A DNA stretch of 64,000 nucleotides from Amoebophrya sp. A120 (lineage: Eukaryota; Protista; Dinoflagellata), in the NCBI GenBank assembly GCA_905178155.1, contig CAJINV010000016.1, forward strand, positions 558,001 through 622,000, read 5' to 3'. Shown in pieces: positions 1-64,000 of this stretch (the stretch's first letter is position 1; the number at the start of each line of letters is the position of its first letter). The position numbers and the translations under genes were made by a program. Below the pieces are notes generated by a model. The model saw only the letters and a program-made list of their open reading frames with translations, did not search any database and was not told the origin of the DNA.

Positions 1-1136
1 TCCGTGGATGTTTTCCTGCATTTTCTTCTCCAAAAATTCCTTCTCCTTCTCCACCTCGTCGTTCTTGTAGTTGTGCTGGATCGCCTCTTTCTGGTTTTCA
101 TCTTTATTCTCCTCGACTTCTTCGTCCAAACCGATTTTCATGTGCTTTCTCTGCTGCATCTTAATCTGCTCGATCTCCCGCTCCGCTTCCCTTTTTGAGG
201 CCTCGTTTTTCTTCCGGATCATGGTCTTTATGTCTTCTGTATGCACAGCAAACGTAGAATCGCAAAGTCTGGCGCATGAATTGCAATAGTACAAAGTTTT
301 TCAAAATCGCAAATTGGAATACAAGCGACCGACCACAGTGCAGATAGTTTTCTTGTCTCAATATGCAACATTGCAATTCGCACGGCTTTATACGATTATT
401 TTCCACCCGGCGCATACTCTTCCTTCTTTGCAAATGTCGTTTTCCTCTTCTCCGCCTGTTTCTTCCGGATCATGTCCAAATCTTTCTTCACCAACTGCTC
501 CGGGGTCAGGTTTATCAACTGTAAAAATGTCTGGGTCTGGAAGAGTGTTAAACCTGTCATGCAGGTTTTCCATGACCCATGAGGTCTGGAATGCGGGACC
601 TAGCATGACAGAGTCTGTGAGGTCTCTGCTATGCCTATCCTGCATGAGAAACTCCCTCCCAACTTGGTCGAAAGTGAACAGCATTTGGCCCTCATGCAAC
701 ACAGATTTTCGCATTATTCGGATTTAGCATGACAACTTGCAATCTTCCAGACCCAGACATTTTTGCAATCCATAAGGTTTTCCTTCTTCTTAAACGCGCC
801 CGGCCGTTCGTCTTCGGGTACATCCCCGGAGATCCCCTCTGAGATCTCGCTTGGCGTGTACGCGTGCATGTCGCCGGTTATTTGCTGCATCATGGGCGGG
901 GCGTTGTGCCCAGTTGTCAGCTGTTCATGGTCCTGTCCATCGAGATTCAGCACCGCGGCAGACACAAAAGTGACTGCGACACAGGCGAGCGTGGTTAAAG
1001 GTTGATTCGTCTTTCGGGGGTTGAAAATTCTAGTACCGCCGCTTGCCGCTGTAGAGTTGTACGAGGGTCGTCGTGCTGTGCGGCATGACAAACCGCCGCC
1101 GCGGTCTTTTTCTTTTCTCCGCCGCGGCCGATGCAT
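1..1136 (-). CDS. Hypothetical protein, 3'-partial (runs off window start); N-terminal hydrophobic segment, then charged/coiled-coil-like region
   Basis: ATG at 1136. Exons about 775-1136, 418-507 and <1-268. Removing introner 513-774 plus one AGGTT gives ...KKKENL|TPEQLVKKDLDMIRKK.... A putative GT-AG intron at 269-417 then gives ...KKEE|LCDSTFAVHTEDIKTMIRKKNEASKREAEREIEQ..., open to the window edge. Hydrophobic stretch LTTLACVAVTFVSAAVLNL. Confidence 0.65.
269..417 (-). other. Putative canonical GT-AG intron containing a decayed family-C-like inverted repeat
   Basis: Minus-strand GA|GTATGC...GCGCCAG|ACTT joins two open frames and avoids a TAA. Internal IR GAATTGCAAT (278-287) / ATTGCAATTC (370-379). 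Confidence 0.5.
513..774. mobile_element. TIR introner, family A (262 bp)
   Basis: TATCAACTGTAAAAATGTCTGGGTCTGGAAG...CTTCCAGACCCAGACATTTTTGCAATCCATA; TSD AGGTT/AGGTT; removal restores frame. Confidence 0.9.
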
Positions 1137-1936
1137 CTTGTATTCTAATCTCGGCTCTTGATAGATTTAAGTTTTATCGAATGACGTCATTCTCCTTTTT
1201 GTAAAATCACAACAACTGTAAGTGGTCGGACACCTAGAAGTAGAAGAGGTCGGCACTTTTTTTGTGATTTTTCAGACTCAACAGTAGGACATGACTTCAC
1301 ATTGCATATCGCTCTGTCACGGTTCCTCTCCGTTTCGTGATCCATCAAAACCACTCAAGGGCTCGTCTGACTACTGCCGCCCAGAATAGTATTAGAGCCG
1401 TTCGGTGACCTCACTACATATCAACCAAGCTTGCTGCTCATCCCTCTGTCTCAGAAAGAAGAAGGGCGCACCAGAGCCCGTTTTTACGCAAAATCAACAA
1501 ATCTTGGCTCAACAAGTTCGTCCTGCTCTCAGAGACAGAGACAGACGGGTCTTGAACAAGAAAAAAGTGGAAAACTGCTCCGCGTCTCCTTCAATACCAG
1601 CCAGACCGGTGCAGCCTACTGGAAGACTGATATCTTGTCCATGTGTGTCTATTTCGCGTAAAACTGAGAGGAAAAACTGCGTTGCATTCAGGCACGAAAC
1701 GATTACGACTACCTGGATCTGTCGTCCTGAATTCGTGTTTCGTTGATTGTTCATTGAGTCTTAAATATTGTTGTCGGTAACTTGACGTTGTAATCTTGTC
1801 TAAAATAGTACGAGTACCATAGTACCTACTTACTTAAGTAATTGTCGAACTTCTGCTTCATCTTCAAACAAACAATGCCTTCTAAGAGGCACCTGGCTGC
1901 TCACAATGAGCTGCACCGTCTACTGTCCCACACTTC

Positions 1937-4900
1937 CTACTCCAAACACCGTCCCGCCCGGATCTGGTCCACGCAACAGGCGGGTGAAACTTTGGCCTGA
2001 ATTTCTCTCCGGTACTCTTCTTCAACCAGCGACTATGCAAAGAAAAAAGTGTTACAGTTACACATTTGTTGTCAATTCAGCAACACAAATTTATCTGCAT
2101 GAGAAAGAAAACTTGCAATGCAGAAATCCTACGGGAAAACACCTATGAAACGAGGCTGCTATGCATATCCGGCATGACAGAGCTTGTCTGTCTTGCTTGG
2201 CCTGCAACACAATGTGTAACTGTAACACTTTTTTCTCGCGATAGCGACATCCGCATTTTTTCCGGGTCGTACCTGCTTCCCAGTCTTCCTTTATCCTTCA
2301 ATTTCTGCCCGTGCCGCCACTTTTTCGCGAGAAATCTTTCGAAATCCCGGTTTGTGATAGACGTGGGGACCTCCACCTTTTGATGTTGTTCACCTGTTGA
2401 ATCCCTACTGAATCCGCTTTTCGAAGTAGCACGACCTCCTGCTGTACTAGCAGTTGTATCGAAAAACAATAATTTCATCCTTGATCTCCTTTTCTTCTTT
2501 TTTGCGAACCTGTCCTCCTCAAAAGCGATTTTCAAATCCTTTTCACTTGGCCGCTCGAACCGATCCAAAATCTGCAGCGCAATGATGACAAAGAGGATGA
2601 AAAAAAACAGCAAGGTGTCGAACGTCGTGATGCCGACAAACACTTCCCGGGTGGTGAAATCGACAAATTTGTAAACTTCCTGCGCAAAAATCGCGCAAAC
2701 CCGGCAAAAAAACCGGTTTTCGTTTTTTGACCGGAAGTACCGGATCATCCCGTCCTTGCCGTAGTGGTACTCCGGCTGGCCCATGAGTCGCTGCAGGGAC
2801 AAATGCGCCGCTTCGGTCTCCTTCATGCGGTTCCGTTTGCGGTGGTAGATCTCTTTCTGTTTGTTTCTTTCTTCTTCCTGCCGGGCGCGGTCCTCCTCGA
2901 GGATTATTTGGGCGTGGTTGTAGTTTTTGATATTGTAGTTGTTTTTGTCGTCCGCCTGTTTTTTCTCGCCTGCTGCTTCATCTGGATTTCCACCTTCGGA
3001 AAAAGATTGCACGTTGGAGCCACCACCTCCTATTGTACCCCCATGAAGATCAACGGGGGTCGAACCTGTTGCAGTAGACCTGACATTTTTATCCATCGCC
3101 GTTTTACTCCCCAATTGTCCGTGCTCAGAGCGAGAAGAGGGAGAAGAAGAAGTAGTGCCGGAATTATTTCTACCACCACCACGACCTCCAGAGTTAACAT
3201 GATTTTCCCTCTCCAGCAATTCGCTTTTCCGGACAATGTTCTCGACCGCGTGCTTCCTTGTCAGCGCCGCTTCCCGCTCCTGTTCCTCAAAATCGAAAAA
3301 CCAGTCCGGCTTTAACCCTTGATCCGGCCGCGCCACGTTCTTATTGGTCGCAACTTTCCTGACCGGTCGCTTCGGGTCCACTTCTAGCCGGACCGAGTCT
3401 TCTGTGGCCGCCTTCCGCAGTTTTTCAATAATGTTGTGATACACCAGCTTCACGTCCAAAATGTCGTCGGAGGTTCTGGAAATGTGTCGTAGATTTGACG
3501 CAAGATGACCTTGTTCGCCGTGTTTGTTTTTGCTCGTTGTCTTCGACGTACTCGTGCGATCATCGGTCGCAGGGTCATCGTGGTTGTTCATTTCAGTTTC
3601 TTGTGGATTACCGCGCTTACTAGTACCATCCCCACGCGGTTCCGTCTCCTTCCCCCGTTCTCGTCGTTTCTTCCGTCTTTTCCTCGCCGCCCGCCCGTCC
3701 TCGGTGAAGAGCGTTTCCAGCTCCTTTTCGCTGACGGATAAGCCAATTATCCAGTGCAAATATGTCTGGGTCTGGAGATATTGGAACTTGTCATGCAAAC
3801 TCTCGATCAGAGAAAAGTTTGTGTTGCGTCAGCACCAAAAGTTGTCCATTTTTGCCGCACCCAAGCATTTAGCTTCTCGTGCGAGACAACCATTACGAGA
3901 CCTGGACAAAGCTCGTAATGCTTTTGCGGGCATTCCAGAGCATCTCCGTGATCCAAAAGATGCATGACAAACTCCTGCTTTCTTCCAGACCCAGACATAC
4001 TTGCATTTGATACCAATCAACAAGTCCTTAAACCCGAAGTCCATACTGATCGCGTCGTACGGTGCGCGGGAGTGGTCCGTGTGTCCCTCGATAGAGAACA
4101 CCCGGTTGTTGATCTTCAGGAAGAGCTTTTGTAGCTTCGAGAAGGTAAGTAACGGGTCGTTGAGGAGGGACACGGGCATTTTATACTCCACCTTCACGTG
4201 CCGCCACCAGAGAGGGTCCGACGCTGGTCTCTGCTGTAACTGTTGCCGATCTTTTTCGTAGAACAACGCTCCGGGGTTTGGTTGCACCGGCGTCCCGTCG
4301 GGAGTGACTGTAGCTGGTGTTGCGCTTCCGCCAGTATGAAAAGAAGTCCCCCCATGATCGCCAGCAGCGGCAGCAGCACCGGCGAAATTCGCCTCCCCAG
4401 TGGCCCCGTCGCGGATAAACTGAAATTCGTTACCTCCGGTGGTTTTCAGGGCGTCCACGATGATTTTTTGCCACGTTTTCTTCACTTTCACCGTCTTCAT
4501 CACAGTGACCTTTTGCTTGTTGTCCCGAGGACTTGCTGGTGTTGCTGGTCCATGCAGCCCGTTGGACGGAAAATTATTGTTAATAGCCTTGTCTTGCTCC
4601 CCCGTCGTGGAGCGAAAGAACGCACTGTCCTGATCAATATCGGATCCCGCATTGGAGATGATCGAATCTCCCCCCGGCGTCGATTTCCGCATAAACGTGT
4701 TCGGGTCCGCCATCTTGAAGCCCGGTGGGGGTTCTAACGGGGGCAACACAACTCCGGGGACATTACTGAAACGTTGTGGCGATGTTGATGAAAGTGGTAC
4801 TCCTGCGAAAAAGGGCTTTGGTAGTTGGTGTGCAGCTCCTAACAACGAAGATCTTCCCGCGGGGTTCATTGTTGCACCACCACCTTCACCCAGCGGAGAA

Positions 4901-7900
4901 GCAGGGGGGGAGGAGTTTGGACTAGACCAGGGGGGTAGATTCGGAGGCGTGAAGGGCGCGGAAGATGATCCGAGATTCGAATCCGAATGTTCATCATGAA
5001 GATCAGCTGTGAAATTACTGGAAAGCAGTCCCGGACCCGACAGCACGGACGAGGAGCCCGCGAAGTCTCCTGATGAACGACCTGATGGGCTTGTTCCGGG
5101 AAGCTGCCCGCTGCCACGAACTATGCCAACATCTCTTTCGAAGTCAGAACCGGGGTCGTTGTTAAAAGCGCCGCCAGCTGCAGCATTTTGCGCCAGGACC
5201 GAACTGAGTTGTAGCTGGTCGTTCCCGGCTAGATTTTCAGGATTTTCATGGCGAGGACGAGCACCAGTGGCAGAGGTTCTAGTACCCGCAGCAGCACTAC
5301 TGTTCCCACGAACATCACCAGACACGCGGTAGGTCTCCGTACTTGGGACTTGGATGTGTGCTATCAAATGTAAAAATGTCTGGGTCTGGAAGGATCCGAA
5401 CCTGTGATGCGCATTTTCGAACACAGAAAAATCTCTCATGCATCGGTAGCAAAAGCTGCCCAATTCTGTCGCCAAAATGGGGGACTTTTCATGCCGGTTC
5501 GGCATTGCGGAAGCTTCTCGAAACCTGTGATGCTAGCGCTTCCATGCCAGACCTTCTGTGTCATGCAAAAACAGCATGAATCTTCCAGACCCAGACATTT
5601 TTACACTTGATATGCGCGTAGGCGAAGTCGCTGCTGCTGTCAATTTCTGAGTCGTTGTCTCCGTTGATACTTTCATCCTCGAACTCGTCCCCGTTGTACT
5701 CGGAGTATCCTGAGAAAAAACGTCCCCACACCAGAGTCAACATGGAAAGTCTGCTATACAAATCGCACAGCTTTGGTTGTTTGGCATGACAAGTTTGTCC
5801 TCGTAGTGTGATCCTGTTTAGCTAGCTCAGAAGCATCACAGATCTAGCATATCATGCTGATCCTAGCATCACACGGTCCCAAATACGAATAGAAAATGCT
5901 TCTCATGGGGCTCCGCATAAGAAACTTTTTTGGCATACGGAATTGCATGACAACTCTGGGGTGGGCACGTTTGTACACTGGATACGGAGTTCAAGAAGTT
6001 TTGCAGGTAATACCGCCACTTTTCCTGGAAATTCGCCCGCTCCTTCTTCCGCGCGTTCTCCTCCGCGGTGGGTAAATGCGGCAGCTTCGGCGAGTTGCAG
6101 CCGAACCCCAGACCCCACGCGGATTGGAAATTGAACGGACTGGGTGACTATCAAATGCAAAAATGTCTGGGTCTGGAACAAAGCAACCTGTCATGCTGAA
6201 TCTGAATCATGTAAAAATCTGTGTTGCATGATAGCCAAAAGCTGTCCACTGTTGACCTAATCGAGAGGCAGTTTCTCATGCAGGGTAGGCATGGATGATT
6301 GAACTCTCACAGAATCTGTCATGCTATGTCCTACATACCAGACCTCATGGGTCATGGAAAACCTGCATGACAAGTCTGGCATTCTTCCAGACCCAGACAT
6401 CTTTGCAGTTCATAGTGACTCGTCCCCGGAATCTGGCGCGGACTCGAGGTCAATGCTCCCGTCGGGATTTTGCTGCAAGAAATTGCCCCCCGGCGTGCCG
6501 AAACTGAAGCGCTCCCCGGAGGCGGAAACCTGGATGTTTTGGTTGCTGCGGTTCAGTAGATTGTCCGAAGAGTCCCGGGGGGCAGCGCCGTGATTGGAGA
6601 GGCGATTGTTGTTTCCCCACGAGTTTCTCTGGCCTGCGAAGCTGTTTCTTTGCTGTCTCTTCAGTTGCTTATACGTCGGCGTCTGGAGTTTCGGCATCAT
6701 GCACCGCATGTCGTCTTCCGATATCAAATGTAAAAATGTCTGGGTCTGGAAGGGTGCAAGGTTTGTCATGCTTGTCTGGCATGACTGAAAAGTCTGTGAT
6801 GCGTGTCCAGGAAGAGACCCTTTTGCTTGTCATGCAAAAACGCAGTTTGTCATGCGGAAAACGCAACACTAAGCCCCGGAAATATTTCTCATGCTTGGCT
6901 ATGCATTAGTACGGACCATTCACTATTCACAACTCAGCATTACAAGTTTCCAGACCCAGACATTTTTACATTTGATATCCGAAAAAATTTCCTCAAACTT
7001 CTCCCGCTCAGTGATGGCATTCACGTCGATCTCCCCGTTATTTGTGGAAAAAGGGTCGCCGTCGTCCCGTTTAGACGTACTTTTGTTCTTCCCCACGACC
7101 GGGGAACCTGGATTTGCTTTGTTCCCTTTGTAGTTTTCACCCCGCAGATAGCCGTCGCGCTTGTCGAGGAAATTCTGCTCCGCACCGCGGGATTCGGACG
7201 CCGGTCGGAAATTCGACCCAAAGTCCGGGACCGGAGCGAGGCCCATGGGCGTCAAATCATCGTTGTCGTCGTTCAATGCCCCGGGCCTTCTTCTGTTCGC
7301 TTTCGGTCGAGGAACTTGTTCTGTAGATAGCTGTTTTCCAGTTACCGCAGCTAGTGCAGCAGGAATTTGTGTTGGTAGTCCGCTGGTCGTTGCTGTACCT
7401 CCGGGACCACCAGCGGCACCTCCGGGACCACGAGTCAAACCAGGAGTGGCAGCCAAGGCGGAGGAAGACGACGACGACCCTTCTGTCGCCGTTGTTCCCA
7501 CTTCTTGATGTCCTTGCGAGGACGAGGAGGTAGACGCCTCGTCAGGTCCTCCTTCGGGTGTGCGCGAACGCGAGCTGCGCTCATGGTAATGACTGTCGTA
7601 CTGCACCACAGGGCTCCGATGTTTCGCCAATATGGCGCTCACACGCCCGGTGAACAAAGGTGAAGACGACCCAGCACCACCTGGAGTTGCTCTCTTCGGT
7701 TCGGACGGGGGCTGACTCGTACTATGACCGGCTGGTGCAGTTGCTGTTGCACCCGCCTTCGGCGTGGCTGCAACAGGTGCTGGAGTACCAGCAGCAGTCT
7801 CTACTCCACCGAAAGCAGTATGTTCCCCATGATGACCTTGTTCCTGCCCCGCACTACTAGTACCTGGGGGCTGCACTCCTGGGGACGGCGCGCCTTCACT

Positions 7901-10900
7901 CGATCCGTTCCTACTACTCTGCCTCTCCTCCTCGAATTGCACGGCCGCGCTCTCGACGTGATCCGCCATGAGCGACGTCTTGTTTTCCATTAGCCGGCTC
8001 TGTACGTAAAACCGGTAGAAATACTTCAAATTCGCGACTTTCTTCAGGTGGGCAAAAATCTGAAAATCCCTTTCCGATTCCTCCCGCAGGTCCTGTCTCG
8101 CAACCGCGTGATCTTGTGACTGCGGCGCGAAGAGAAAGCACCCATTCCCGTTGGTGTTCGACGTTGGTTGCGGCGTCTGTGGGGGTTGGATCAAATTCCC
8201 CGCGGAATCTATCCTGGATCGGATCGGCTCCTGCCCCTCGTGGGATGGGGAGAGGTTCCGCTTCGCTGCTCCAAAACCCGCGGCGCCGCTCCCCGCAGAA
8301 TCCCCGCGCTTCAGAAGTTTCAAATTTGCTAACACTTGTTGTCCCGCTTGCTGAAAAAGCTTCAGCGGTTTGTCGTAGCCGTCGCAAAAGTATGAATTGC
8401 AAAAGTATCGCACTCGTATAAATGCATTACAAATTTTCTCAGCATGAGAAAAGAAATTTGTAATGCGAATTTACCTTTAGGAAAACATTTGTAATGCATG
8501 ACTGCAATACGAGTGCGATATTTTTGCACAGGATAAAAAGGATTTCACCGCAGACGTGATCCACTGGCCGCGGCCGGGTTTTCCCCCCTTGAAAATGTCC
8601 ATATTGCGGAAGAAATCGTCCGGCTCGGGCTCTACCGGAGGTTTGGGCTTGGGCTTCGGAGCACCAGCAGTACTATGTTTCGGCGTGCCGTGCTGCAGAG
8701 CCGCTCTCGGAAGCATCGCAGTGGGACTGGGTTTTGGTCGGGGCGGAAGATGTCCTTCTTGTTGCGGGTGATTTATTTTGCTCATCCCACCTTCGTCTTT
8801 TGTCCTGCTATGCAGTTGCTGCTCTGCCCGCGCCCTCGCTGTTCTCGACTTCGGTGTCGGCTGCGCTCGGTCTTTAGTTGTACTCGGTGTCTTAGTATTG
8901 CGACGGTCCGCGAAGCCTGCGTCGCTTCGGTCGAAATCGGGCTCCAAATTGTCCAGTTCCGGTGGCGGTGTGCGAAGCCTGGTTGTTCCAGCAGTTCCTC
9001 CGCGCACAATGTGTCCATCTACCATGTAAGCATTGTTACCACCTCCAATTCCACCACCACCGCCAATATCCCCCGCAGCAGCCCCCGGCGCAAGATTTCT
9101 TTTAGGCCCCCCAGCAAGCTCCTTCGTCCTACTCCGCGCCGGGGGCGTGGGCATCGCACTAGTACTTGCCGTTCCCACCGACGCGGCGCGAGAGGTGGTG
9201 AAACTGATCGAGGATTTCGGCTCTTTTGCAGGATCATTTTGATAGCCTTCCTCATCCGTGTCTACGTATTTTCCGTCGATAAAGGTGCTATCTTCCACCG
9301 TGCCCTGGCCGATTTGGATCCCGCACACGAACAGCGTCGCGGCGGCAGCTTCCTTTTTCCGCTGGTTTTTCGTAAGTTTCTTGGAAGTTTTTTTCTTTCC
9401 CTTCTTGATAGTACTATGTGCCGAAGCATCTGTCTTAGTGTTCGTTGGCATCGTCCTGTTCGCGCCGATTTTTGGGCTGTCGAGATTCGAGTCCTGCGAG
9501 CCCAGATGCGAAGAGCCCAAGGAAGCCCGCTCTGCTTCGGTTTCTGCGGTTGACGTTGAGGAGTCCCGCACTAGTTCAGGCGCATTGAACGGAAGAACTC
9601 CACTACTGTTCTTTCCCGGGGGCGCGGAAGAACTTCCAGCTGCAGGTCCTCGTGATGAAAAACCCACACCTTCTCCCACATTCTCTAACTTTTTCCTCCC
9701 AAGGTCACTTGCTGGTGACGCTTGTCTACTTTCCTTGTCCTGCTCCCTTCTTCTCTTGTCTAATTTTTCCCGGCTCGTGGTCTTGCAGTTACCATACACG
9801 GCGTCTTCGTAGATCTTCTGAAACGACGGGTTTTTCTGTCTTTCCGCTACAGTGAAGCTGTCGCAAGAGGGGATCTTTTTGTCCCAACTGTTCGGTATGT
9901 CCACGATTTCGCTGTCGCGGTAAATCGCGAGGTGGGTCAGACTGGTTCTTTCCTCCCTTTCGTTGAAGGTGAAAAACCGCAACGCATTCCCCATCCGCCA
10001 CTCCACCGAACACCGGATGGAATGCAGTCCAGCCATCGACTGGTACGATGCGCCCTCCATGCCCCGCTCTTTCATCGGAACAGAATTTTCGCTAGCTCCT
10101 GCTGGTGCGCCAGTGTGGTCAACACCCGGGGGACTAGCGCCGGTTGTACTAGGCTGTGTTGCTTTCTTTTTCCTCGGGTCTTCCAAAACCGCCCGGCTGT
10201 GCGGGATGGGCGCCGCTTTGCTCGGGTAATATCCTGAGTAAAAACGTCCCCACACCAGAGTTGTCATGCAAATCTGCATGCCAAAAAAGTTTGTCATGCG
10301 GAGCGCCATGAGAGGCATTTTATAGTCGTGCTTTGGAATTTGTGACGCTACAATCCGCATGATATACTGGATATGTGATGCTGCTGAACTACCTAAACAG
10401 GATGACACTACGAGGAGAACCTTGTCATGCCAAACGACCAAAGCTGGGTGATTTGTCTAGCAGATTTCCCATCTTGACTCTGGTGTGGGGACGTTTTTAC
10501 AAATGATAGGTAAGCCCACGGGTTCATGTGGTCGCTTTCCAGATGCAGCAAATCCAGCGCCACCATGTTCTCCGCAGATTTACCAAACAGCGAAATTTGG
10601 TCCTCCACCGGCATGTCGAGCATGCTACTCAGGTGCTGCCGCGGTCCCAACGACGGGATAACGACCGGAAGAGCTTGCTCGCTGTTGGTGGTTTGCGTTC
10701 TACTGTCCGGGGGAAGGGGAACTCCTGCACCAGCAGTACCAGCGGCCGGAGCAGTTTGCTGGGTGAGACTCCGGCGCGGCGGTTGTGCAGTCGCAGCCGC
10801 AAAAGAACCTCCTTCACCGCCACCTCCGAAAAGTCCGCCCTGAGAAGGTGCACGACCCTGACCCTGACTGATACTCTCAAAAATTTCCTTGTCTGTCATG

Positions 10901-35570: not shown

Positions 35571-35823
35571 TTTTGTTTCAGTTTGTTTGCGCAAGTTTCT
35601 TCGAAATTGATGCAGAAATAACCGGGTTGTAGTACTGGCTTATGTTCTCTGTCGCGTCGTGCCAGCACCGAGAATGAACCAGCCGCTCCCTGTGCGCTGT
35701 GCAGTTCTGCTGGTGCCGGTTGGTCCTTACATATTAGTTCCAATGCGTATGCGATTGCCAACGACTGGTGCAACTCCGGCCTCTAGTCGCAATTAGGTCC
35801 CCTTCATGATCCCGGCTACCCTT

Positions 35824-52600: not shown

Positions 52601-55600
52601 GCCGGATCTTTTGGCATCCCCTTTGCTGCCTCCTCCCCCGTCGGCATTTTCTTCTTTACCGCCAGATCCAGTAGCACCAGAATCACCAGGCAGCTCTGGT
52701 TCAGCACCACCTTCCGCGTAGTTGTGTATCGTCGTCCCGTCATCGTCGTCAAAATACCACAAACACGCCGCAAACTCCTCGTACACCCGACGTAACACTT
52801 GGTATTGGTACTTCAAGTCCGGTCGTAACTCCTCGGCTAAAAGCCGCAAGTACTGCTCTTCCACGTCGTAATGCCACCTCAAGTCGCGTTCCAAATGCCC
52901 GGGGACGTGCTTTTTCGTTTCCGTTTTCTTGTCCCACAAATCGGAAAACTTGTTCGTCTTCAGCCGCTCCTCCCGGCTGTAGCGGATATTTGCTTTCCGG
53001 ATTTCTCGGTAGGGTTCCTCCGTTTCGCCGTGGCAGAGGAGAAAAAGTTGAAAACTGTACGCGGATTGCCCGTTTTCCTTCACCCCCTTCACCGTGGGAA
53101 CGGTCAAGGGAACGCAGGGCTTCCCCACTGTGTACAATGCGGCCGCTGTCAGTTTCTGCCCCTCGAAGAAATCGAAGTCGCCGAAAATCGACACTTCGGA
53201 AGTTGTCACGCAGTCCGCGAAAATGATGGAGCTGTAGCTCGCTTCCACCTTGGACTTCACTTGAAATCTGTCATAGAACGTGGTCAATTGAGAATTCTTC
53301 ACGATAGACTCCTCAAACTCCGCTAACGATCCGAAATTTGGGTCGTCGAAAACGAGAAAGTTAAACTGTGCGACGACGGTCCCCGGATTAGAAAGAATTC
53401 CGGTGTTGGAAGTGGAAGACGAACTCGCAATAGACTCGATCGCGCGTCGCACGGTCAAGAACGTCGCCCCGAAAATGCCCTGGGCGTTGATCACAGATTC
53501 TGAATTAGAAGCGGTAATGATCGCCTGCTGTTGCTGCTGTTCCTTGCTGGGGGTGCTCGTCGCTTGTTGTTGTCCAGTAGTTGTCCCTGGAGCAGCATTT
53601 GCAGCAGCTCCTACCGCGTGGTCTATTTTCTGCTCGTCCTGAATTTTCACGACATGTTTTTTCCACTCCGACCACTGCTGCTGCATAATCTGGTCCCAGC
53701 ACTGGATACTTGCGTCTTTTACGTCCATCTGGTCTCGGTGTTTTTGTACTTTGTACAAAATCCTATGGGACCTTTGCAGTCGCTGCTTTAAATAGTAGGG
53801 GAGTAAAGGCTCGTCGTCGAGTTGTCCAGCGCCAGGAAACTGATCAACCATGGCGAGCTGTTGGCTCTGACTTGTTTCTGCAGTATTCGCAACCCCACCC
53901 CCGCCTGGACTATTCGAGGAATCGACACTATCTCCGCGGGCACTCAACTGCGTCGGGTTGAATGAGCCAGAAGCAGAACGGGAAACCGTACCTGCAATAG
54001 CCGCGGCGGGCGTCGGCTGTGCTGCTTCGCTAGTAGAAAATGAGTCATCAGCAGATCCACCTAACGCGCCAGCTCCGCCAGCAGCGCCACCTCGGACGAT
54101 CGGGAAAAAGTGCCACCACATAATTGGAGAGGAGACCCCCGCTGCTCCTGTATGGCTATTGCTTGTTGTGTATTCGCTAGCGGAAAGATTTTCCTCTTCC
54201 GTTCCTACCAAATGGAATTGAAAATTTCCGACCGTACGCTGGTACTGCTTCACACTGTGGACGCTCCTGCTCGTGGTCTCTTGTGCGTTTTCGAATTCTG
54301 GTGCTCGACCTGGAGAATGAGAATCTAAATCCTGAATCAAATCCTCTTCCTCCAGAACCTCCGCATACCACCCGTTCGCGCCCGCAACTTTCAACTCAAT
54401 CCCCGGGTCCATCGGGTGGCGTAACGTGTCGAAGATTAGATTTGTCCCATTCAGCAAGTTATAAAATGCAAAAGTGTCTGGGTCTGGAAACTTGTGATGC
54501 TGGTTGAGAAAGACGAGGACGCCTCAATTGACTGGCAAGCATGACAAGTTTTGCTTTTGGAGGTGCTACAGTCTTGGCTTTTCTGCATGACAAAGTAAGC
54601 TTCATCTGCATGACAGAAAAATAGGGCTTTTGGGTAATTTGCATAACAGACTTGCGAGTGATGTCAGACAAGCATGACAAACTTCCATTCTCCCAGACTC
54701 AGACATATTTGCATTTGATACAAGTTGAACCCGTTCCCATATCCTTCCACATCCGCGAAGTCGACTTCTTCGAAATTATCTTCGCTGCCGACACCATCGT
54801 TCCCGATCGGGTTGTACCACTGGTGCTCGCGGGAAAGCATCCTTGACAACCACAAGGTTTCATCGACGAAATTGCCCTGCCCCCGCGCCTTGCTCTTCTT
54901 GATCTTCGACGGGGTCATGCCGTAATTCAAGAAGTTCAGGTGCTTGTGGTAATTCGCGATGTCCGTCGCGACTTTGAAAAACTTCTTCGTTTGGTCGTCT
55001 AATTCGATCTTCGAAGTAGAACTACTTCCTCTGGTTCCATCGTCGTCGTCAAAATCCTCGAAATTGTCATAAGCATCGTGGAATCTCGCCGCGGTGAGCA
55101 TCAGCCGGAGGGTTTCGGGGAGGTATTGGTAGTACCAGGGATCTTTGTTCTTCTCGTAGTACTCGTCTTCGAGTCGTTCCCTCAATCTTTTCTGCTCCAA
55201 CCGGTAGGCGCGCTGCTCGTCGAGGGTGTCGAAATCGGTGGCTTTCCTATGGTTCCCGCCACTGAGGATAGAGGGGTTTTCGGAAACCCATTGAGGGCCG
55301 CCATGATCCGCGTCTGCAGCATCACCGTTTCCAGCCGTTGGTGAGGAATTTGGCTCCTGCCCCGCCGTGTTTCCTGCTTCATCACCTTCATCATTTTCCG
55401 CCGCACCATCCAGGTCATTTTTACCACCGCGGCCCGCATACTGTTCGACATAAATGTTGTCCCCATTCCCGATTCCGCGACTAACCAAAAACTCACTGTT
55501 TTTACTCCGATAATCGCTCGCGGAAAACAGTAAGTGATCCACCACTAAAGTTTTCAACGCTTCATTCAAAGCCCGTTTCCTTGTTTTCTCTCCACCGTCC

Positions 55601-58600
55601 ACATGCCACAATACCGAAACGGCCAAATCCGGGTGCGGTAAGAATTCCAAAGCTGGGACATCGGATAAAGCCCGTCGTTCCATCGACCGGTCTAGTAACA
55701 AATTTTCCCTGGAAACCAAATCCACAAACCCGGAATGCTGCTGATTCGTCGGGATCGTCTGCATGCCCATCGGGTAATACCCCGGCGCCGCCGCCAACCC
55801 CAGGGCGGAATTGCTCCGGGATAAAGTGTTCTTCGGAATCGCTTTCCCTGTCTCATCAGTCGCGGACGTCCTCCCGTCGTAGACCCGGGGGGCTAGAGGG
55901 GTGCAGCGCGGGAGCCAGGTGAGCGGGTTGTGCTTCACGATGCTGTCCCCGAGGGTCTCGTTCCGGATGCCGTCGACTAAATTGTAGTCGGAATCCAGCA
56001 TGAAGTAGAGTTTTTTCCAGTCAATGATCGTTTTCTCATTGGTGATCTTCTGCCAGGTTAGGCGGATCGGCTCGGATTTGGTCAAGGAGGTTTGCCGGCT
56101 CATGTCATCAAAATCGCCGCAGTTTAGCAATTGGTGGGAAATGCGCGCATCTTCCTGTAGGTCTTCGGACAGAAGTTCAATTTCCAACTCGATTTCCTGC
56201 TGTTTTATTTCTTCAAGGCTAGTAGTCTTGCTTTTGCTTTTGCTTGCATGATCTTCCGAGGAATTCTTCCCCTCGGTTCTTGGCGCACTGGCGTAGACAA
56301 GTCTCTTTGCTACCTGCTGTGCAGAAGTAGATGCAGCAGTTGTAGTAGGCACAGCCTCTCCAGAGGCGGAAATCGTAACAGCAGCCGCTGTGGTGCTTGA
56401 TGTAGTTCCACCACTATCTAGCTGCGACTGGGCCTCTTTCGCCTTGCTGTAGAGTTCCTCCAGTTGAAAATGTACCGCGGATTTTTCCATAAGCAAATCC
56501 AACGAAGTTGTCTCCTGTTGCGGCATAAATTCGGCGCGCATCTGCACTCTTTTCAGCTTCTGCGCCTTCCGGGTACCGCTGCTCCCTTCTGGATTTAGTA
56601 GTTGTCCACCCTGATAGAGCCGTTTTTTTTCTTCATCTGCAGCCGCATACAGTTGCTGCAAAATCTCTTTCCTCGTCTGCAGACGAAAGTCTTGCTGGGG
56701 CAGCTTTTCAGCAGCATATTGATTTCTCTCCGCTTGTTGCAAATTCTCCTCATTTTGTTCACCGGTAGCTTCTCGTGGACCCGGTAGATCTTGTTCGTTT
56801 CCAATCGGACCTCGAGTGGCTCCCCGAGCAGCTCCGCCAAAGCGATCGATATTCGCCGGCGCACGATCAGGAGCGACATGATCATCTGCAACTACGTCAG
56901 CAGCAAAATCTTCAAACTTTCGGCTCATTTCTGGCGCCCCGGGCGCCCGGCTCTCCTTGTCGGCGTAGTATTCATCTTCCTCGCGACCGGCTGCACCTTG
57001 CTGTGTGTTTCCTGTGCCGCCAGGAGCGCCGTCATCAGCTACAGCAAGCGGCCCCTGCGAAGAAGATGCTCCGATCTTCGCAGTGCTGCTCTGCGCATGA
57101 GCCGCGTTATTGACCCCAACATCGAAGTTGAACTCATCCCCGGGCGAGTTGAAGTATTCCGCCGCAAACCTGATTTCCGCGATGCTGGATTTCAAATCCT
57201 TCGCATATTTCGTCGCGATGTCGTCAAACTCACCCCCACCGCCGTACGTCCTGCCATCAAAACCCATCCCCATAGCGGAGTTCGCACTTCTCATCGATTG
57301 GAGACTCGCAACTGTGTCTAAGGAGCTGGATGTGTGGGATAATTGTATCGTCCCCGTTTCGCTATCGCGAATCACGTGGTCCAGATCACCATGCGCGTTC
57401 TTCACATCTACCCCCGACTCGCCTAACCTCTTGAATTCAAAGTGCTTGTAGATTTTCGCCTCGGTACTGTGTTTCTCAAACAGGCTCGCTTCGCCGATGA
57501 CGCACGCGATCTTCTCGGATTTTTGCAGAAACGGTGAGTTTTGCTGCAGCTTTTTCATCCGGATTTCCTGAAACCGCATAATCTGTTCATGCCTGAGCTG
57601 CAAGTCCTGCTCGAAAGTGAGGTCTGACAGGACTTCTATCGAGTCGGTCGTCGCATAAATGGTGCTGGAAGCACCGACCCCCGCAGGCATACCGTACTGC
57701 ATGGCCTCGCGGAATTTTCGAGTGGAAACTGCGGGCCTGCTGCGCGAAGCCGGACGAGTCTCTGCTGCAGGAGCAGCACTGGTGGAGGAAGATCCTCTTT
57801 GCCCGGCGGGACCACCTGCTGCTTCTTTCGTATTGCCCCTGCTGGGGCCAGTAGGATCATGGTGCAGCCCTTCTGCAGTAGCTTCAGCCTCCACCTCTGC
57901 ATCACCACTGACGCCCGCATGATCTTCTTCTTCGTCATCCCCCCCTCTTGGTACGCCCGGCGGACCACTAGTAATACTTCCTCCATTACCATTGTCTCTC
58001 TGCACGCGAAACCCGGAGTAGTAAATGTTCGGGCCAAATTTTCTATGCACGTGGTAGTACGTCTTCATTTCCAATGGTGCGTCCTTTTTCTTCTCGCGCA
58101 GCTTCATTTCTTTCAAGTCGCCCCTTTGCCTCGTCCGCGTCCGGTCCGCTTCGAGAATTTTCAATTCCTGTTCTTTCGTCCTTTCGCTCGCCCTCTCCGC
58201 GAACTTCAAACACTGGTAACCGAGTTCCAGTTTGTACGAAATCGGTCTCGCGATCTCCTCCTGCAGCAATTTCGCAAATTCCCGCATGACAATCAGGAAC
58301 AAGTCCCAGCCCTCGCCCTGGATCGGCTGTCTTTCCGGCAGGGAAGTCGTGTCAGCTGCCTCTTCGTAGACGACTTTCGGCGGCTTCGTTCCAAAGGAGT
58401 GGAACCAACCGGAGGTGTACAGAGGAAAATCTTGCTTGGAAAGGTATTGTTTCTCCTTTTCTGCCTTCTCTTTCTCTTTGTCTTGCTCAGCACTACCAGG
58501 AGCTCTGGAGGATGAATTGCGTTCACCTGTTGTCGCTCCTGAAGAGGTTCCACCACCAGCTTCTCCGCCGGGGTAGCTCCCGCTCGACGGGGCTGCATCT

Positions 58601-61600
58601 TCACCTGCGCCGGAAGATCCAGCGGCATAATCACCTGCACCGCCACCAGCAGCAGTGGGAACAGGAACAAAACCAACAGGACCACCGCCGCGCAAAGAAG
58701 AAAAATTGGGCTCTTCTTCCTCCTCCGGAATGTGACTGCTCGAAGACGATCTCATCCGACTGACCGGCGGCATTAATACACCGGCTTCTAAAACTACCGA
58801 AGCTGATCCAGACTGTTCCCGTTCTCTATCCCTTTGCTCCCTCTTCATCAGCTTTTCCTCAAAAGATTCAAAATCCGTCGTCCACTCGATTTCCCAATGC
58901 ACCAACACGGCGCTATCCAATGCAAGAGTATGATCGCACTCGTACAAATTATCGCAGTCTCGCATGACAGGTGTTGTTTTGCTTCCCAATTCTGCATGAC
59001 AATTTTCAATTTTGATTCTAAAAAAATTTGTGATGCATTCACTATCAGCGCGACACAACTTTTGCAACGCATACGCTCCCTCGCGAAGCAGATGCTCGTC
59101 CTCCCGGTATTTCCGGTTCACGGGAGAATCAGCACTGATCGAGCTCGTACTCAACACCCAAACCCGGTCCATCGGTAAGGTCATTCCTAAAGGGGATATC
59201 AACTCGTTCCGTTCCGTGAAGTGCAGGCTGTTCGTCAGAGCAAAAATGTGCTCCACAACATGTTCGCCCGTGATCCGGGTGTCTTCGACAAAATCTAACG
59301 TCACAGAGATGACTTCCTCGCCGGCCAGGCGATAGAAGTTGCTCTCATCGTGATAACCGAATAAATCTACACCTGTGCTGTGTGCTGCCATTGAAGACGC
59401 AGCTTGCGGGAAGATGTTGAAAGACGAACTTCCCTGCTGGTGCCAAAATGAATCTTCTCCCTGCATGGTGCAGAAAGCCGGGCGGTTTTCCCGCGATTTG
59501 CTGTTCGAATCCAAATCCAATTTCTCTTTCCCTTCCCGGCTGTGAAACGCGTACAGCATCCGCCAGGGGAAAAGCTGCTGGGTTTCTTCCCGGATCTGCT
59601 GCCGGGATGGGAATTTGCTGGACAACTGTTTCCCTTGTTTCAACAATTTCGAATACTCCTTTTGCACGTCGGTTGCGAGCGCAATGTGCCGCGCGAGCAC
59701 GGGTCTGTCGAGGTGGTCCTGCGCTTCAAGACGCAGCAGGTTGCTGGGAGAACTGCGGCTCCGCAGAGCATCTACCGACGGGGAGGACCTGTTATTTTGT
59801 GCTGCTGGACCATGCCGAGCAGAGCTGCCTACTTGCGGAGTAGATCCCAAGTGCGCAGCCGCGTCCCGCTGCGCCGCGATAGTAGATCTTTCCATCCCAA
59901 GCATAGAACCAGAGACTGCTTGATGTCGCGTAGCAGAAGACCCTCCTCGAGGAGCAACTCCTTGTCCTAGCGCGCTCTTCGCTTGCGGTTTTTTTCGAAG
60001 AATTGTACCAGCCTCGAGGACAACTACATCCTCGAACTCTTCTTCCTCCTGTTGAGGCTTTGCTTTCGAAGCAGATTCGTCTGTGGGGATATCACCCTCC
60101 CCTTCTCTAAACTTCCGCTGCTTATCTAATGCGTCCTCTAGCAATTCCTTCTGCGCCCGCTCCGCCGTCCGTTGCTCACTGGTCGCGGAGAAATCCACCA
60201 TGGCGGTGGAAATCTCCAGCTGCGGAAAGACATTCCCGTTATTTGCGTTCATCTGCAAAAACACCGCCAGCGACTCCCAGGACCGCCCGTAGGAGTAGGT
60301 TTGCTCGATTTGCTGCGAACTCGACCCAGGACTTTGACCGGAACTACTGCCACCGCTCCCGCCGAAAGAGGAAGACTGGGAAAAGTGGACACTGTCAACC
60401 GACGGGTTCTTGCGCAGCCGCTCCGCGTCCCTCTTCAAGGACGCGGCAACGGCTCCGTGCTTGCTTTCCTTACCGTCTTTGGCTTTTGTGGCATCTTCTT
60501 TGCCGGTGATGAGCATGCTACTTTCTGGAGCACCGTCGTCACCACCGTTTGAGGTCAGCGCATCTCGAATCTGCTCCATGTCCGGAGGGGGAAACGTGAA
60601 TAAGTCTATGTCAAACCGGTTTTTCAGCTGCTGCTCGGAAACTACCTTGTTCCTGTGGTCCACTATCCAAGAAAAAAACTGTGTAAGTGTAACTTTGTGT
60701 TGCAGAAAATGCAAAACGGTGACACTTGTCATGCTGGACATGCATCAGAGGCAATTTTCGTGCGTGTTTTCACGTACTAGGTACGCATGACAGGTTTTCT
60801 GTGTCATGCAGAGCAAACTTGTGATGCTATTCCTCCAAGAAACTTACACTTACACAGTTTTTTTCCTGGATATCCACCGGTTCTGGCGTAGTAGTGCTGG
60901 CGGGGTCGTCGTGCTGACCACTCTGGCTGTTGTCATTCGGGTGCTGAACATCTTCGACAGGCTCATTGCCAGTACCAGCACCTGCTCCGGAGGGCGCACC
61001 AGCCGCTTGGGAGTTCTTGTCAGCTGCGTTCTTGTTTATTTCCTCCTCGGATTGTTCTCCCTCCATGACCTGTTGCTGCAACAACGGCCCACCAAACGTG
61101 TGCACGCTATTCATCATGATGTGCGACAAATTTTTCTTGTTGTCAACGTCAGTGTTCTTCGCGATCGTTGTGCCGAAAGTGAAATCCTGCCCGTTGTTGT
61201 GCGATGAGAAAGTCGACCCATCGTGAAGATTATGCCTACTGCCCGTCCCCTTCCCATACATCTCCGAAACCGAGTCGTGACCCGCGCACTGTAATAATTC
61301 GTTCCCGCCACTGCCACAACTGTTCATGGCGAATGTGTTCGCACTGTCGACCGTTCTCGCCTTCCAGTACCTGATGCTGTGATGCCGCTGCACGATCCTG
61401 CGGTCCGATTGGGCGATCTCCGGGCCGAAATGGAGATTGAACCAGGCCTGAAAATTTTCCCAAAACGGGTCCACGCTCCGGGAGTTGACTATCCCGCCAG
61501 AGTGGCTGCTGTCCCGCCTGTATTCGTTCCATTCGTTGAATTGTAGAACTTGTTTCAAGTCTCGGCTCATCGAGAAGATTTTTCCCGCTTGCACTACCCC

Positions 61601-63746
61601 GTCGGGATTTGTATTTACTGCTCCACTGGACGAAGTCCCAGCAGCTCCTCTCCCGCTAGTACCGTGCGGATAATTATTTCCACCAGTAGTTCCGGACGCT
61701 GTTGCAAAGGACTGCTGACTCGCCATCCCTCCACCAGCAGCTACAGACCCGCCCACCAGCGACTGCAATCTAGAAAGTGGCTGAAAGTGCGGCACCGAGC
61801 TCGAACGCATAAAGCTACTACTGAATGACCCTGGCGGGGGCCCTGCACTACCACCACCAGTTCCTCCGAGACTGATCGACGCGCTGCGCTCCCGCGCACC
61901 AGCTGCCGACACCCCCGGAGCGGCTGCAGCCCTTGGGGACGACCACGGATTTGCTCGGTTTAAGACCGCTTGGGCTCTCCGCGCCGCGTCGAACCCGAAG
62001 TCAGATCTGTTTAAGAACTGCTTGTGTTGGTCGAAAACCCGTCTCGCGTCGCTACGGAAAGCATTATACGTGTTGCTATTCACGTATTCACTCATCATTT
62101 TATTGTTCACAAAACCGAGCTCGCTCGTCAACCCTAACCGCAGGAAAAACCACTCGGAATCGGGTAAGTGCGTTCCGTAGAGTTCCGGATCGGGGGACTC
62201 ATCTAGCATAGAAATCAGCGCCTGCAAAAACTTCCCGAGCATGTCCCGAATCTGCACGGAATCCATTACACCGTCTTCCAGCTCGGGTTTGGGGAAAAAG
62301 CAGTCTCTCTTGTGGCATTTCAGATCCGTTTCAATATCTTGAATCGGGTCCCGTTTGATCCCCGCCTGGTTCGCGAGATCCTCAATTTCCGGCGGTAACG
62401 CGCCGGGCACAGCAGCCAACACCATCGGGTTGAGCTGAATCTTGTGCGCCGCGGTCCTCGCGGCGGGTGGTGACCGGGGGTGTGTCGTAGTCATTTTCGA
62501 GGGCGTCGAACTGCTGTGGTACAGGCTCGCACCGGCAACTCCCCGGCGGTGCGCCGGATGCACGGCACCATTATGGGGTAGTGTGGATGAGGGTTGTATC
62601 GTAAGGAAAAATCCTCCCTCCCCATATTGAAAAGGTATGTTTCCGGAAATTTGTGTTGCTGATTTGAGATCACAAATCACCTTCGTCGTGCAAGAAGACA
62701 AGGGCAGAAGCTTCCGCCCCATTATGGAAGCGATTTGTCATGCTGTTGGGCCTAAAGGGGAGGCGTTTGCCATGCTGAACAACTAGACCCATACGCCCCT
62801 ACCTAGCCTGGGGGCCTGGCCGCAGTGCCTCCCTGCAATACAAAGCTGATTTGTGTACACAAACCCAGCATCAGAAGTTCCGTTTTGATATGGGGAGGGG
62901 GGATTTTTCCTTTCGATAGGTTGCTCGGGGGGCCCAGCTGCCCCAACTACAGCCCGCGAGGTAGTAGACCGCTGCTGCTGCCCTCGCTCTACTGCCGGCT
63001 GTTGTTCACCTGCAGGCCCGTGCCGCCGGTAGTAGAGTTGCTGCTCTAAAGGGAGGCGCTGCACCCTTTGCGGCATAAAGCTCCTTGGTGGCGCCGCGTG
63101 CGAGAAGATACCCTGGCCTGATTCCTCCTCGTCATCAAAGAGACTCGAAGTTGACCCCCTCTGATACGGCTCGTACGCACGACCTTGGGGACCGCCAGAA
63201 AAAGCTGCACCGCCCCGAGCGAAACCTGCTGAAGCTCCACCTCCCCCGTAGTTCATCGTGTTCACAACTGCTGCACCACCACCAGTTTTCGACCCGCCAA
63301 ACGTTGCTGTCATGACGCCGCCCTCCTGCTTTTTCTGCTTCAAAAAATCGGACTCCATCTTCCGCTTCATGCGTCCCATCATGCGGTTTTTCAACGTGGA
63401 AAAATCCTTGTAGAAGTTCTCCATATCAACTGCAAATATGTCTGGGTCTGGAAGATTGCCAAGCTTGTCATGCATATTCGGCATGGCCCATGGTGCCTGT
63501 AATGCGTGCCCTAGCATCACTGATTTTTAGAGGACTTCCTGATGCCTTTTCCGCATCACAAATGCTCTCTCCACGTAGCACAAAATCGACTCCTCTTGCT
63601 GCTCATGCAATACAGATTTTTTTCCAAATGCAAACACCGCATCACAAGTTGCAACCTTCCAGACCCAGACACTTTTGCAATGCATACTCCACCCCGGTCG
63701 ACGATTCGATCGCGGACCGGATGGAGTCCAGAGTCCCCACAATCAC
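37662..63746 (-). CDS. Giant hypothetical membrane-associated protein, 5'-partial (>7,800 aa in window), paralogue of the gene at 1937-35570
   Basis: Exons about 63687-63746, 62919-63418, 60873-62591, 59074-60658, 54721-58908, 46738-54454, 43619-46478, 42611-43446, 41067-42284, 40679-40942, 39847-40512, 37662-39562; total 23,514 nt = 7,838 codons. Ten introner junctions are in frame. The junction near 40943-41066 is uncertain. Hydrophobic segment IAYLCLLSWWIFRMLVVYYF at ~39480-39540. Confidence 0.75.
39568..39846. mobile_element. TIR introner, family B (279 bp)
   Basis: TATCCTGAGTAAAAACGT / ACGTTTTTACTCAGGATA perfect 18-bp ends; TSD CCACG; junction MKSHV|EFWIS. Confidence 0.9.
40518..40678. 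mobile_element. TIR introner, family C (161 bp, degenerate)
   Basis: TATCCTGTGCCAAAGTATCGTACT...AGTACGATA[~10-nt insert]CTTTTGCAACGCATA; TSD TAGTG/TACTG; junction AARSS|SKTSS in frame. Confidence 0.75.
40943..41066 (-). other. Putative intron (possibly GT-AG) containing a decayed TAT...ATA inverted repeat (40973-41058)
   Basis: The upstream ORF stops at 40999 and the downstream frame has a TAG near 40960, so an intron is needed if this is one gene. G|GTATTT...AAAAAG|GT gives PSKRG|SRRDFDG in frame. Weak IR TATGCTGAGAAGGATTTG / CAAATCTTCCTTCCAATA. Confidence 0.4.
42290..42610. mobile_element. TIR introner, family E (321 bp)
   Basis: TATCGTAAGGAAATATCCCCCCTCCCCATATTGAAA...TTTCGATATGGGGAGGGGGACTTTTCCTTTTGATA; TSD CAGCG; junction FSSSA|AADDD. 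Confidence 0.88.
43452..43618. mobile_element. TIR introner, family C (167 bp, degenerate)
   Basis: TATAAACCCCTGCAAAAGT...ACTTTTGCAATGCATA; TSD CCTCG; junction LPVRG|EGTAR. Confidence 0.8.
46484..46737. mobile_element. TIR introner, family A (254 bp)
   Basis: Family A TIRs, interior similar to 6722-6977; TSD TGTGC; junction HHRLH|THAYN. Confidence 0.9.
50717..50839 (-). repeat. Coding 33-bp tandem repeat, ~3.7 copies (MTHRRSDGGAS)
   Basis: Visible in the translation of ORF 46700..54457 and as CCGTC(A/T/G)GA(T/C)CTCCGATG(C/A)GTCAT units at a 33-bp period. Confidence 0.9.
54460..54720. mobile_element. TIR introner, family A (261 bp)
   Basis: Family A TIRs; TSD CAAGT; junction NGFNL|LNGTN. 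Confidence 0.88.
58914..59073. mobile_element. TIR introner, family C (160 bp), stop-free and in frame, so hidden inside ORF 54664..60741
   Basis: TATCCAATGCAAGAGTATGATCGCACTCGTA...CTTTTGCAACGCATA; internal GCATGACA x2 and TTGTGATGC; TSD GGCGC/CGCTC (2 mismatches); removing 165 nt gives LLREG|AVLVHW. Confidence 0.75.
60664..60872. mobile_element. TIR introner, family D-like (209 bp)
   Basis: TATCCAAGAAAAAAACTGTGTAAGTGTAA / TTACACTTACACAGTTTTTTTCCTGGATA; TSD TCCAC; junction PEPVD|HRNKV. Confidence 0.88.
62597..62918. mobile_element. TIR introner, family E (322 bp)
   Basis: TATCGTAAGGAAAAATCCTCCCTCCCCATAT / ATATGGGGAGGGGGGATTTTTCCTTTCGATA; TSD GGTTG; junction PPEQP|SSTLP. Confidence 0.88.
63424..63686. 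mobile_element. TIR introner, family A (263 bp)
   Basis: Family A TIRs; TSD CTCCA; junction STGVE|NFYKD. Confidence 0.9.
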
Positions 63747-63747
63747 G

Positions 63748-64000
63748 TATGAAATGCAAATATGTCTGGGTCTGGTAGGATCCGAACTTGTGATGCGTGT
63801 TTCGGATCCTACAAAGATCTGCGATGCATAACGTGCAAAAGGTGCCCACTTCTGGCCATGCTGAGAGGGCACTTCTCATGCAGAATACGCATCACCAAGG
63901 AGCTGCAGAGCCTGTGATGCTAGGCCCTGCATTCCAGACGTGGGGGAGCTTGGAAAAACTGCATGACAAATCTCGGAATCTCCCAGACCCAGACATTTTA
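63748..64000. mobile_element. TIR introner, family A (truncated by window end)
   Basis: Left TIR TATGAAATGCAAATATGTCTGGGTCTGG; right TIR core CCAGACCCAGACATTTTA at the final bases; TSD not checkable. Confidence 0.8.

Follow-up and report, generated by a model that had tools for sequence, protein, structure and literature searches.

Amoebophrya sp. A120, a dinoflagellate, is reported to contain 66,565 RNA-supported introns, of which more than 60% are non-canonical and 29,850 are repeated (Farhat et al. 2021, PMC7789003). These repeated introns, or introners, end in TAT followed by seven nucleotides and AAA and lie between direct repeats of 3–5 nt, their variable borders being left as unknown (PMC7789003). 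Among 22 of the 58 A120 family rows, most are classed as DNA transposons with terminal inverted repeats (TIRs), and family lengths such as 149, 208, 260, 278 and 320 bp resemble those described here (Gozashti et al. 2025, PMC12130899). Another Amoebophrya strain has mostly GT-AG introns (PMC12005148). More widely, an explanation is needed for the way in which tens of thousands of introns can be removed in a eukaryote without splice-site dinucleotides and, apparently, without U1. Here, we analyze a stretch of 64,000 bp from A120 (the window; contig CAJINV010000016.1, positions 558,001 to 622,000), in which introner copies interrupt very long reading frames. Their removal, which ignores flanks and orientation and takes the element plus 5 nt, very probably takes place at the RNA level.

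Several described systems resemble this locus in part. The nonconventional introns of euglenids (PMC12501133, PMC11282704) likewise have TIR-paired ends and direct repeats that blur the junctions, and for them an origin from miniature transposable elements with inverted repeats (MITEs) and a removal apart from the ordinary spliceosome have been proposed. Their junctions are preferentially Y/R, their ends follow a CAG/CTG code and their excision yields circles, whereas neither preference nor code is found here: flanks are arbitrary and ends are TAT…ATA. The MITE-derived spliceosomal introners of Micromonas, Aureococcus and Polarella are also non-autonomous TIR elements that become introns on insertion, but these carry or co-opt GT/GC and AG sites, which are rare here. 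Ciliate internal eliminated sequences (IESs) are transposon-derived, with symmetric ends and exact frame restoration as at this locus. They leave the DNA, whereas here DNA-like contigs keep the elements and RNA-like contigs are without them. Ginger-like and integrase-type DDE transposons share the short fixed target duplication and the TIRs, but a transposase frame was not found in any copy here. One A120 introner family does have integrase-like frames between its TIRs, in an element said to lack Ginger termini (PMC12130899).

Element census and classification

The window comprises 37 complete TAT…ATA elements (A, 18; B, 6; B-variant, 1; C, 6; D, 2; E, 2; F, 1; and one long element) and one further family A copy that is truncated by the window end (Table 1). 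These are the 38 elements of the initial annotation, whose coordinates and counts hold, except that it labelled the long element as a family D copy, which is doubtful, and missed a degenerate 39th copy (240–416) that a position-weight scan picked up. Strict matches, defined by exact termini, an exact 5-bp duplication and a TIR, number 28 in the window against 0, 0, 0, 1 and 0 in five block shuffles; degenerate copies were added by hand, and a match of this TAT…ATA scan at 29033–30007 was discarded as chance.

The published end motif, TAT + 7 nt + AAA, is present at 66 of the 74 ends. The terminal TAT is common to all families, positions 4–7 are variable and poorly paired, position 9 is a G in 68 of the 74 ends and the AAA occupies positions 11–13. 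Internally, a GCATGACA-like motif is repeated, with 143 occurrences in 10,166 bases of element against 8 in the 53,834 bases elsewhere. Long terminal stems were found in the two copies folded with controls (z = −8.0 and −5.6), the same two that are skipped in RNA-like contigs (see below). The 5-bp flanking duplication is perfect in 30 of 37, has four of five matches in five and three of five in one (58914); 29269 has a 47-bp duplication (43/47) in its place. A 5-bp direct repeat with at least three matches, within the published range of 3–5 nt, thus accompanies 36 of the 37 copies.

In ends, TIRs, short direct repeats and length (~150–320 bp), as in the absence of GT-AG, RNA-supported removal and lack of coding capacity, these elements agree with the published A120 introners (PMC7789003, PMC12130899), with hairpin-capable TIRs and repetition in families; there is no difference in kind. 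If TAT and ATA are taken as the outer limits, nearly every copy here has a duplication of 5 bp. The copies are instances of those introners and, because of this match, the class is not new, as the initial annotation had stated: it was published with RNA-seq support in 2021. TIRs, a fixed-length target duplication and the lack of a coding frame also make them MITEs. No transposase frame was found in any window copy or in 165 loci of a second assembly, Rfam returned 0 matches, and the family A end pattern has 0 matches in viral contigs.

Restoration of the reading frame

Deleting each element with 5 nt of flank (47 nt for the long copy) yields four long minus-strand frames, the largest of 8,758 codons (Table 1), whereas a uniform extra deletion of 0, 1, 3, 4 or 6 nt leaves no frame longer than 2,664 codons. 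Element + 5 opens the frame at 37 of 37 complete copies whatever their length modulo three (13/11/13), just as initially described, and a retained element breaks the long frame at 35 of them (18400 is counted as broken owing to a frame shift). Copies 58914 and 40518 are not evidence of removal, because their frames stay open with either copy retained, and the reading frame fixes the extra deletion modulo three only. These points qualify the restoration seen at all 37. At one window site, 24812, the frame itself separates 5 from 2 (Table 1), and two RNA-like contigs separate them as well. For 63424, only some 20 codons lie upstream inside the window. Both junction peptides predicted earlier, DLLIG/LSV and NPWAY/PSK, are reproduced in the joined frames.

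Retention in DNA-like and absence from RNA-like contigs

Eleven runs are listed, none of whose holders is on record as RNA, and four of them were compared with positions 350–20340, which hold 17 elements; 16 pieces are listed of more than 20,000 across the runs compared. Run X1, of unrecorded kind and possibly the window's own source, has a flat exon depth like DNA. Run X3 is RNA by guess. All eight X1 pieces listed pass unbroken between exon and TIR at either side, which amounts to 16 junctions in 11 elements, and no element-free allele was seen among these eight pieces and the 15 joints listed for this one run (1,327 further joints exist). In X3, record 9 joins 2243–3360 to 1650–2027 and skips 215 nt, and record 13 joins 6978–7854 to 6415–6716 and skips 261 nt; in both, this is exactly the element + 5 nt, as expected from the initial annotation if X3 is RNA. 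Absence from the RNA-like run with non-GT-AG borders is thus seen at 2 of the 17 elements among the pieces listed. The depth of X3 is 15 close to the 3′ end and declines until, past 13 kb, element-free bins have ~0, a profile that poly(A) RNA would give, while that of X1 stays at 24–40. From the raw RNA runs X9 and X10, with ~3 million reads each, 5 and 9 reads were obtained; all are fragments of elements and so speak for neither side. As DNA-like contigs keep the elements and RNA-like contigs skip them, removal from RNA is favored over IES-like excision from DNA, and the initial annotation's placing of the two on an equal footing is not borne out.

Copies in a second assembly

The family A end pattern matches 165 loci, all in one assembly (JACKZZ01 contigs). 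Families A to F all have relatives there, the best matches being 70–95% identical; of the 37 complete window copies, 34 are matched. No exon shared by window and loci was found, the 30 non-element rows printed being all element-spanning. When TIR pairs were collected without using the duplication, 286 were obtained, 221 with an exact 5-bp duplication and 31 with one mismatch, and no other length is prominent; the 34 pairs with at most three matches were set aside, many being mispaired ends of neighboring copies. Lengths modulo three are again mixed (80/91/81). A total of 100 confident frame calls was reached among 261 copies tested: +5 won 88, +4 won 9 and +3 won 3. The strand could be called for 125 of the 261.

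Pfam searches with 150 of 152 exon pieces identified conserved hosts, including DNA ligase, KIN17, SNF2 helicase and ABC transporter. Locus L012 has a copy with family A ends within DNA ligase I, 13 codons ahead of the KxDG motif. Against human LIG1, the exon alignment breaks off after residue 294 and resumes at 297, and the two intervening residues are supplied only by +5, which alone keeps the ungapped register. A KIN17 junction (L046, 5594–5850) was considered as support for +5 over +8 and rejected, as +5 leaves one residue more than human KIN17 has; a search with the C-terminal part of KIN17 gave nothing useful. Some long copies of this assembly (L031:632–1465, L035:4314–4770, L065:571–1051 and L066:3862–4492) hold unrelated inserts at the internal motif. 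Several of these end in (ATG)n or (ATGA)n tracts and resemble retro-inserts that target the elements.

What removal reads

Flanks and orientation were examined in a pooled set of 160 oriented copies (125 from the second assembly and 35 from the window, with 43452 and 29269 left out). GT-AG is possible at 6 of the 160 sites, and in the window at 1 of 37 (Table 1), which agrees with the initially noted lack of a conserved GT-AG. As a group, the elements therefore lack, whatever register is chosen, the GT (or GC) donor and the AG acceptor that mark spliceosomal introns. The flanks have no consensus and no target-site preference is clear. The base before the sense-strand TAT varies, as annotated (G13, A10, T7 and C7 in 37 window elements), and is a G at 47 of the 160 pooled sites. 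The large A120 families have 26–28% of 'gt' starts (PMC12130899), which matches the chance of a G before TAT. Forward and reverse copies number 47:55 in the second assembly (102 of 125) and 10:18 in the window (28 of 35), where families A, B and D each have members in both orientations relative to the same coding strand. Since flanks and orientation are immaterial, the removal signal probably lies in the symmetric ends.

Duplication mismatches occur at all five positions, and copies with 3/5 and 4/5 matches sit in open frames, so a perfect repeat is not required. The earlier proposal that TIRs and duplication jointly guide removal therefore finds little to support the duplication's own part. 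Neither orientation independence nor a uniform element + 5 rule was met in the published text, although figures S19–S25 of PMC7789003 could show either, and the same text yielded neither a count of GT-AG rarity nor the lack of G·U pairing bias discussed below. Natural test cases exist: 12188, 5362 and 12520 carry mismatched duplications that bracket the cut within one gene, the 47-bp duplication of 29269 separates a ruler from homology, and 58914 is a possible exon.

Mechanism and alternatives

We found no paper resolving the removal mechanism in the literature on Amoebophrya or Syndiniales introns, subscription papers being outside our scope, in line with the initial annotation. What is observed comprises the anatomy, the restored frames, the use of both orientations, DNA-like contigs that keep the elements and two RNA-like contigs that skip them exactly. 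On balance we lean, by a modest margin over even chances, towards the following account: MITE-like copies are mobilized in trans with a 5-bp stagger, and the element + 5 nt is then cut from the pre-mRNA by an end-reading activity outside the ordinary spliceosome. An integrase-like transposase would move the copies and would probably bind the repeated internal motif; no autonomous copy was seen in the window or the 165 loci. In the transcript, the TIRs would pair into a long stem ending in the shared TAT-N5-G-N-AAA motif. A dedicated cut-and-join activity, as proposed for the nonconventional introns of Euglena, could then cut at fixed distances from the ends, so that five nucleotides of flank are lost along with the element. 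Any insertion would then be silent, given that its duplication measures exactly 5 bp. That U1 small nuclear RNA went undetected in both A25 and A120 (PMC7789003) counts for removal outside the ordinary spliceosome. A more specific version, which we consider tentative and rather unlikely as it stands, has a spliceosome-independent RNA system, possibly a domesticated transposon protein with an RNA ligase, read the transposase's symmetric ends and remove a ruler-measured 5 nt. Were this ruler system true, insertions would all be silent whichever way they point, and the picture published as 'no splicing motif, 1,954 families' would reduce to one rule; such sequence-independent, scar-free RNA excision would add a new kind of splicing that might serve as a tool.

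Several observations weigh against an end-reading activity acting on RNA. Hairpins with short direct repeats are a classic substrate of template switching, just two of the 17 elements compared are seen bridged in the pieces listed, and the bridging run, RNA by guess, is presumably cDNA. The invariant ends could serve the transposase alone. Copy 34778, with one mutated terminus, still lies within an open frame. On the sense strand, TIR mismatches are not enriched in G·U relative to A·C (135:121, p 0.42), so that selection on fine RNA pairing is not visible, and the sense strand folds better in just 22 of 36 copies. Duplication mismatches are silent in 17 of 30 cases versus 32–47% expected if one copy of each base were intronic (p 0.004–0.2 depending on the null), which hints that either duplication copy may reach the mRNA, i.e., at a sliding cut. 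Finally, the ends differ in strain A25 (TTA; PMC7789003), which a fixed TAT-specific ruler does not explain.

The strongest competitor, possible though clearly behind the preferred account, is a re-tooled major spliceosome without U1 that finds the signals for 5′ site, branch point and 3′ site within the TIRs, which offer the same sequence in either orientation. The spliceosome pairs the first and last intron bases, and here it would have to accept arbitrary ones. No dinucleotide is conserved at either flank in any register, and a 30-bp stem would mask the signals. On the other hand, every 3′ arm provides an invariant CA together with a U-run, A120 is reported to have U2, U4, U5 and U6 as well as 83 of 89 spliceosomal proteins, with U1 undetected (PMC7789003), and the non-canonical introns of Fritillaria, with TIRs and target-site duplications, are reported as spliceosome-removed (PMC11282704).

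Precise DNA excision in a transcribing stage, as for ciliate IESs, with the RNA copied from an edited template, would equally account for ends that are symmetric, for indifference to orientation and for an empty site that is restored exactly. We nevertheless regard it as highly improbable, for the X1 pieces cross 16 exon–element junctions unbroken. This argument has its bounds: X1 is the one DNA-like run compared, with 15 joints listed and 1,327 others, the window itself may derive from it, and rare variants are lost from contigs. To our knowledge, this parasite has no separate germ-line nucleus, so that excised copies would be permanently lost. The word 'excision' is absent from the main text of PMC7789003.

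Least probable of all is that the skipped form is a template-switch artefact of reverse transcriptase and the real mRNA keeps the elements, in dead genes or by ribosomal bypass between matching duplication codons: cDNA-only false introns exist (PMC8240250) and a 5-bp duplication always contains one whole codon in any phase, but frames of 8,758 and at least 6,916 codons are open across 26 and 8 copies, one copy lies just ahead of the KxDG motif of DNA ligase I, the bridging X3 contigs continue unbroken through the junctions, and duplication mismatches do not avoid the shared codon (18 inside and 12 outside, with 60% expected inside).

Atypical copies

At the long element 29269, both +5 and +47 removal keep the frame. 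The excess of its duplication over 5 bp is divisible by three; a ruler would require this, but it has a one-in-three chance anyway. Internal 20-mers are repeated, and the longest internal frame has 165 codons, short of transposase size. It lacks the shared internal motif and any interior similarity to family D, which is why its earlier assignment to that family is doubtful, and its end has 0 matches in the 165 second-assembly loci. At 58914, the retained copy leaves the frame intact at 6,971 codons and, judging from the sequence, may have been exonized as 55 codons. The ends of 240–416 are barely paired, and removal is still needed for the frame, which suggests that old copies are removed with little TIR remaining.

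Host frames and minor observations

Table 1. Introner copies and host reading frames of the window (window coordinates).
Feature	Position	Strand	Remark
Degenerate element	240..416		3/5 duplication; +5 (modulo 3) removal opens frame 1
Family A	513..774		5/5 duplication
Family D	2034..2243		skipped with +5 nt in X3 record 9
Family A	3748..4012		5/5 duplication
Family A	5362..5612		4/5; mismatch at sense position 3, silent
Family B	5706..5984		orientation opposite to 10230
Family A	6149..6414		orientation opposite to 513 and 19698
Family A	6722..6977		skipped with +5 nt in X3 record 13
Family C	8391..8535		5/5 duplication
Family B	10230..10508		5/5 duplication
Family A	11167..11429		5/5 duplication
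Family C	11989..12138		5/5 duplication
Family A	12188..12453		4/5; mismatch at sense position 1
Family A	12520..12781		4/5; mismatch at sense position 5
Family A	15836..16093		5/5 duplication
B-variant	18400..18692		5/5 duplication
Family A	19698..19959		5/5 duplication
Family A	19986..20247		5/5; 26 bp after element 19698..19959
Family A	21270..21523		5/5 duplication
Family C	23615..23782		4/5; mismatch at sense position 5
Family A	23883..24147		orientation opposite to 12520
Family B	24203..24481		5/5 duplication
Family F	24812..24961		+2 gives a stop, +5 does not
Long element, 1,094 bp	29269..30362		~60-bp TIRs; 47-bp flanking duplication 29222-29268 / 30363-30409, 43/47
Family A	33424..33676		5/5 duplication
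Family B	33734..34015		5/5 duplication
Family B	34438..34716		orientation opposite to 39568
Family A	34778..35040		one terminus mutated, sense 5′ end TAC
Family B	39568..39846		5/5 duplication
Family C, degenerate	40518..40678		4/5; open frame also spans retained copy
Family E	42290..42610		5/5 duplication
Family C	43452..43618		sole window copy able to slide to GT-AG
Family A	46484..46737		5/5 duplication
Family A	54460..54720		5/5 duplication
Family C, degenerate	58914..59073		3/5; frame-neutral, stop-free if retained
Family D	60664..60872		orientation opposite to 2034
Family E	62597..62918		5/5 duplication
Family A	63424..63686		5/5 duplication
Family A, cut by window end	63748..64000		truncated copy
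Host frame 1	1..1166	-	at least 239 codons once 2 elements are removed; extends past the left edge of the window
Host frame 2	1940..35639	-	8,758 codons once 26 elements are removed; no Pfam match
Host frame 3	37665..40958	-	948 codons once 2 elements are removed; no Pfam match, homologue not found
Host frame 4	41002..63746	-	at least 6,916 codons once 8 elements are removed; no Pfam match

Across 18 window frames, 0 Pfam families were found, and a homologue search with two window exons found none, which is weak evidence. Frames 2 and 4 are very long, low-complexity orphans (no homologue for the one exon searched), and conventional introns are not needed anywhere across either. At the upstream limit of the large frame (35640–36300), frames switch near 35640–35760, and a short GT-AG intron or a decayed element may lie there. 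Three near-identical tandem units of ~39 bp occur in coding sequence at 50720–50840. The insertion phase is skewed: the first duplication base is codon position 3 in 72 of 125 copies of the second assembly and in 16 of 33 in the window, perhaps from target composition or a frame-calling bias.

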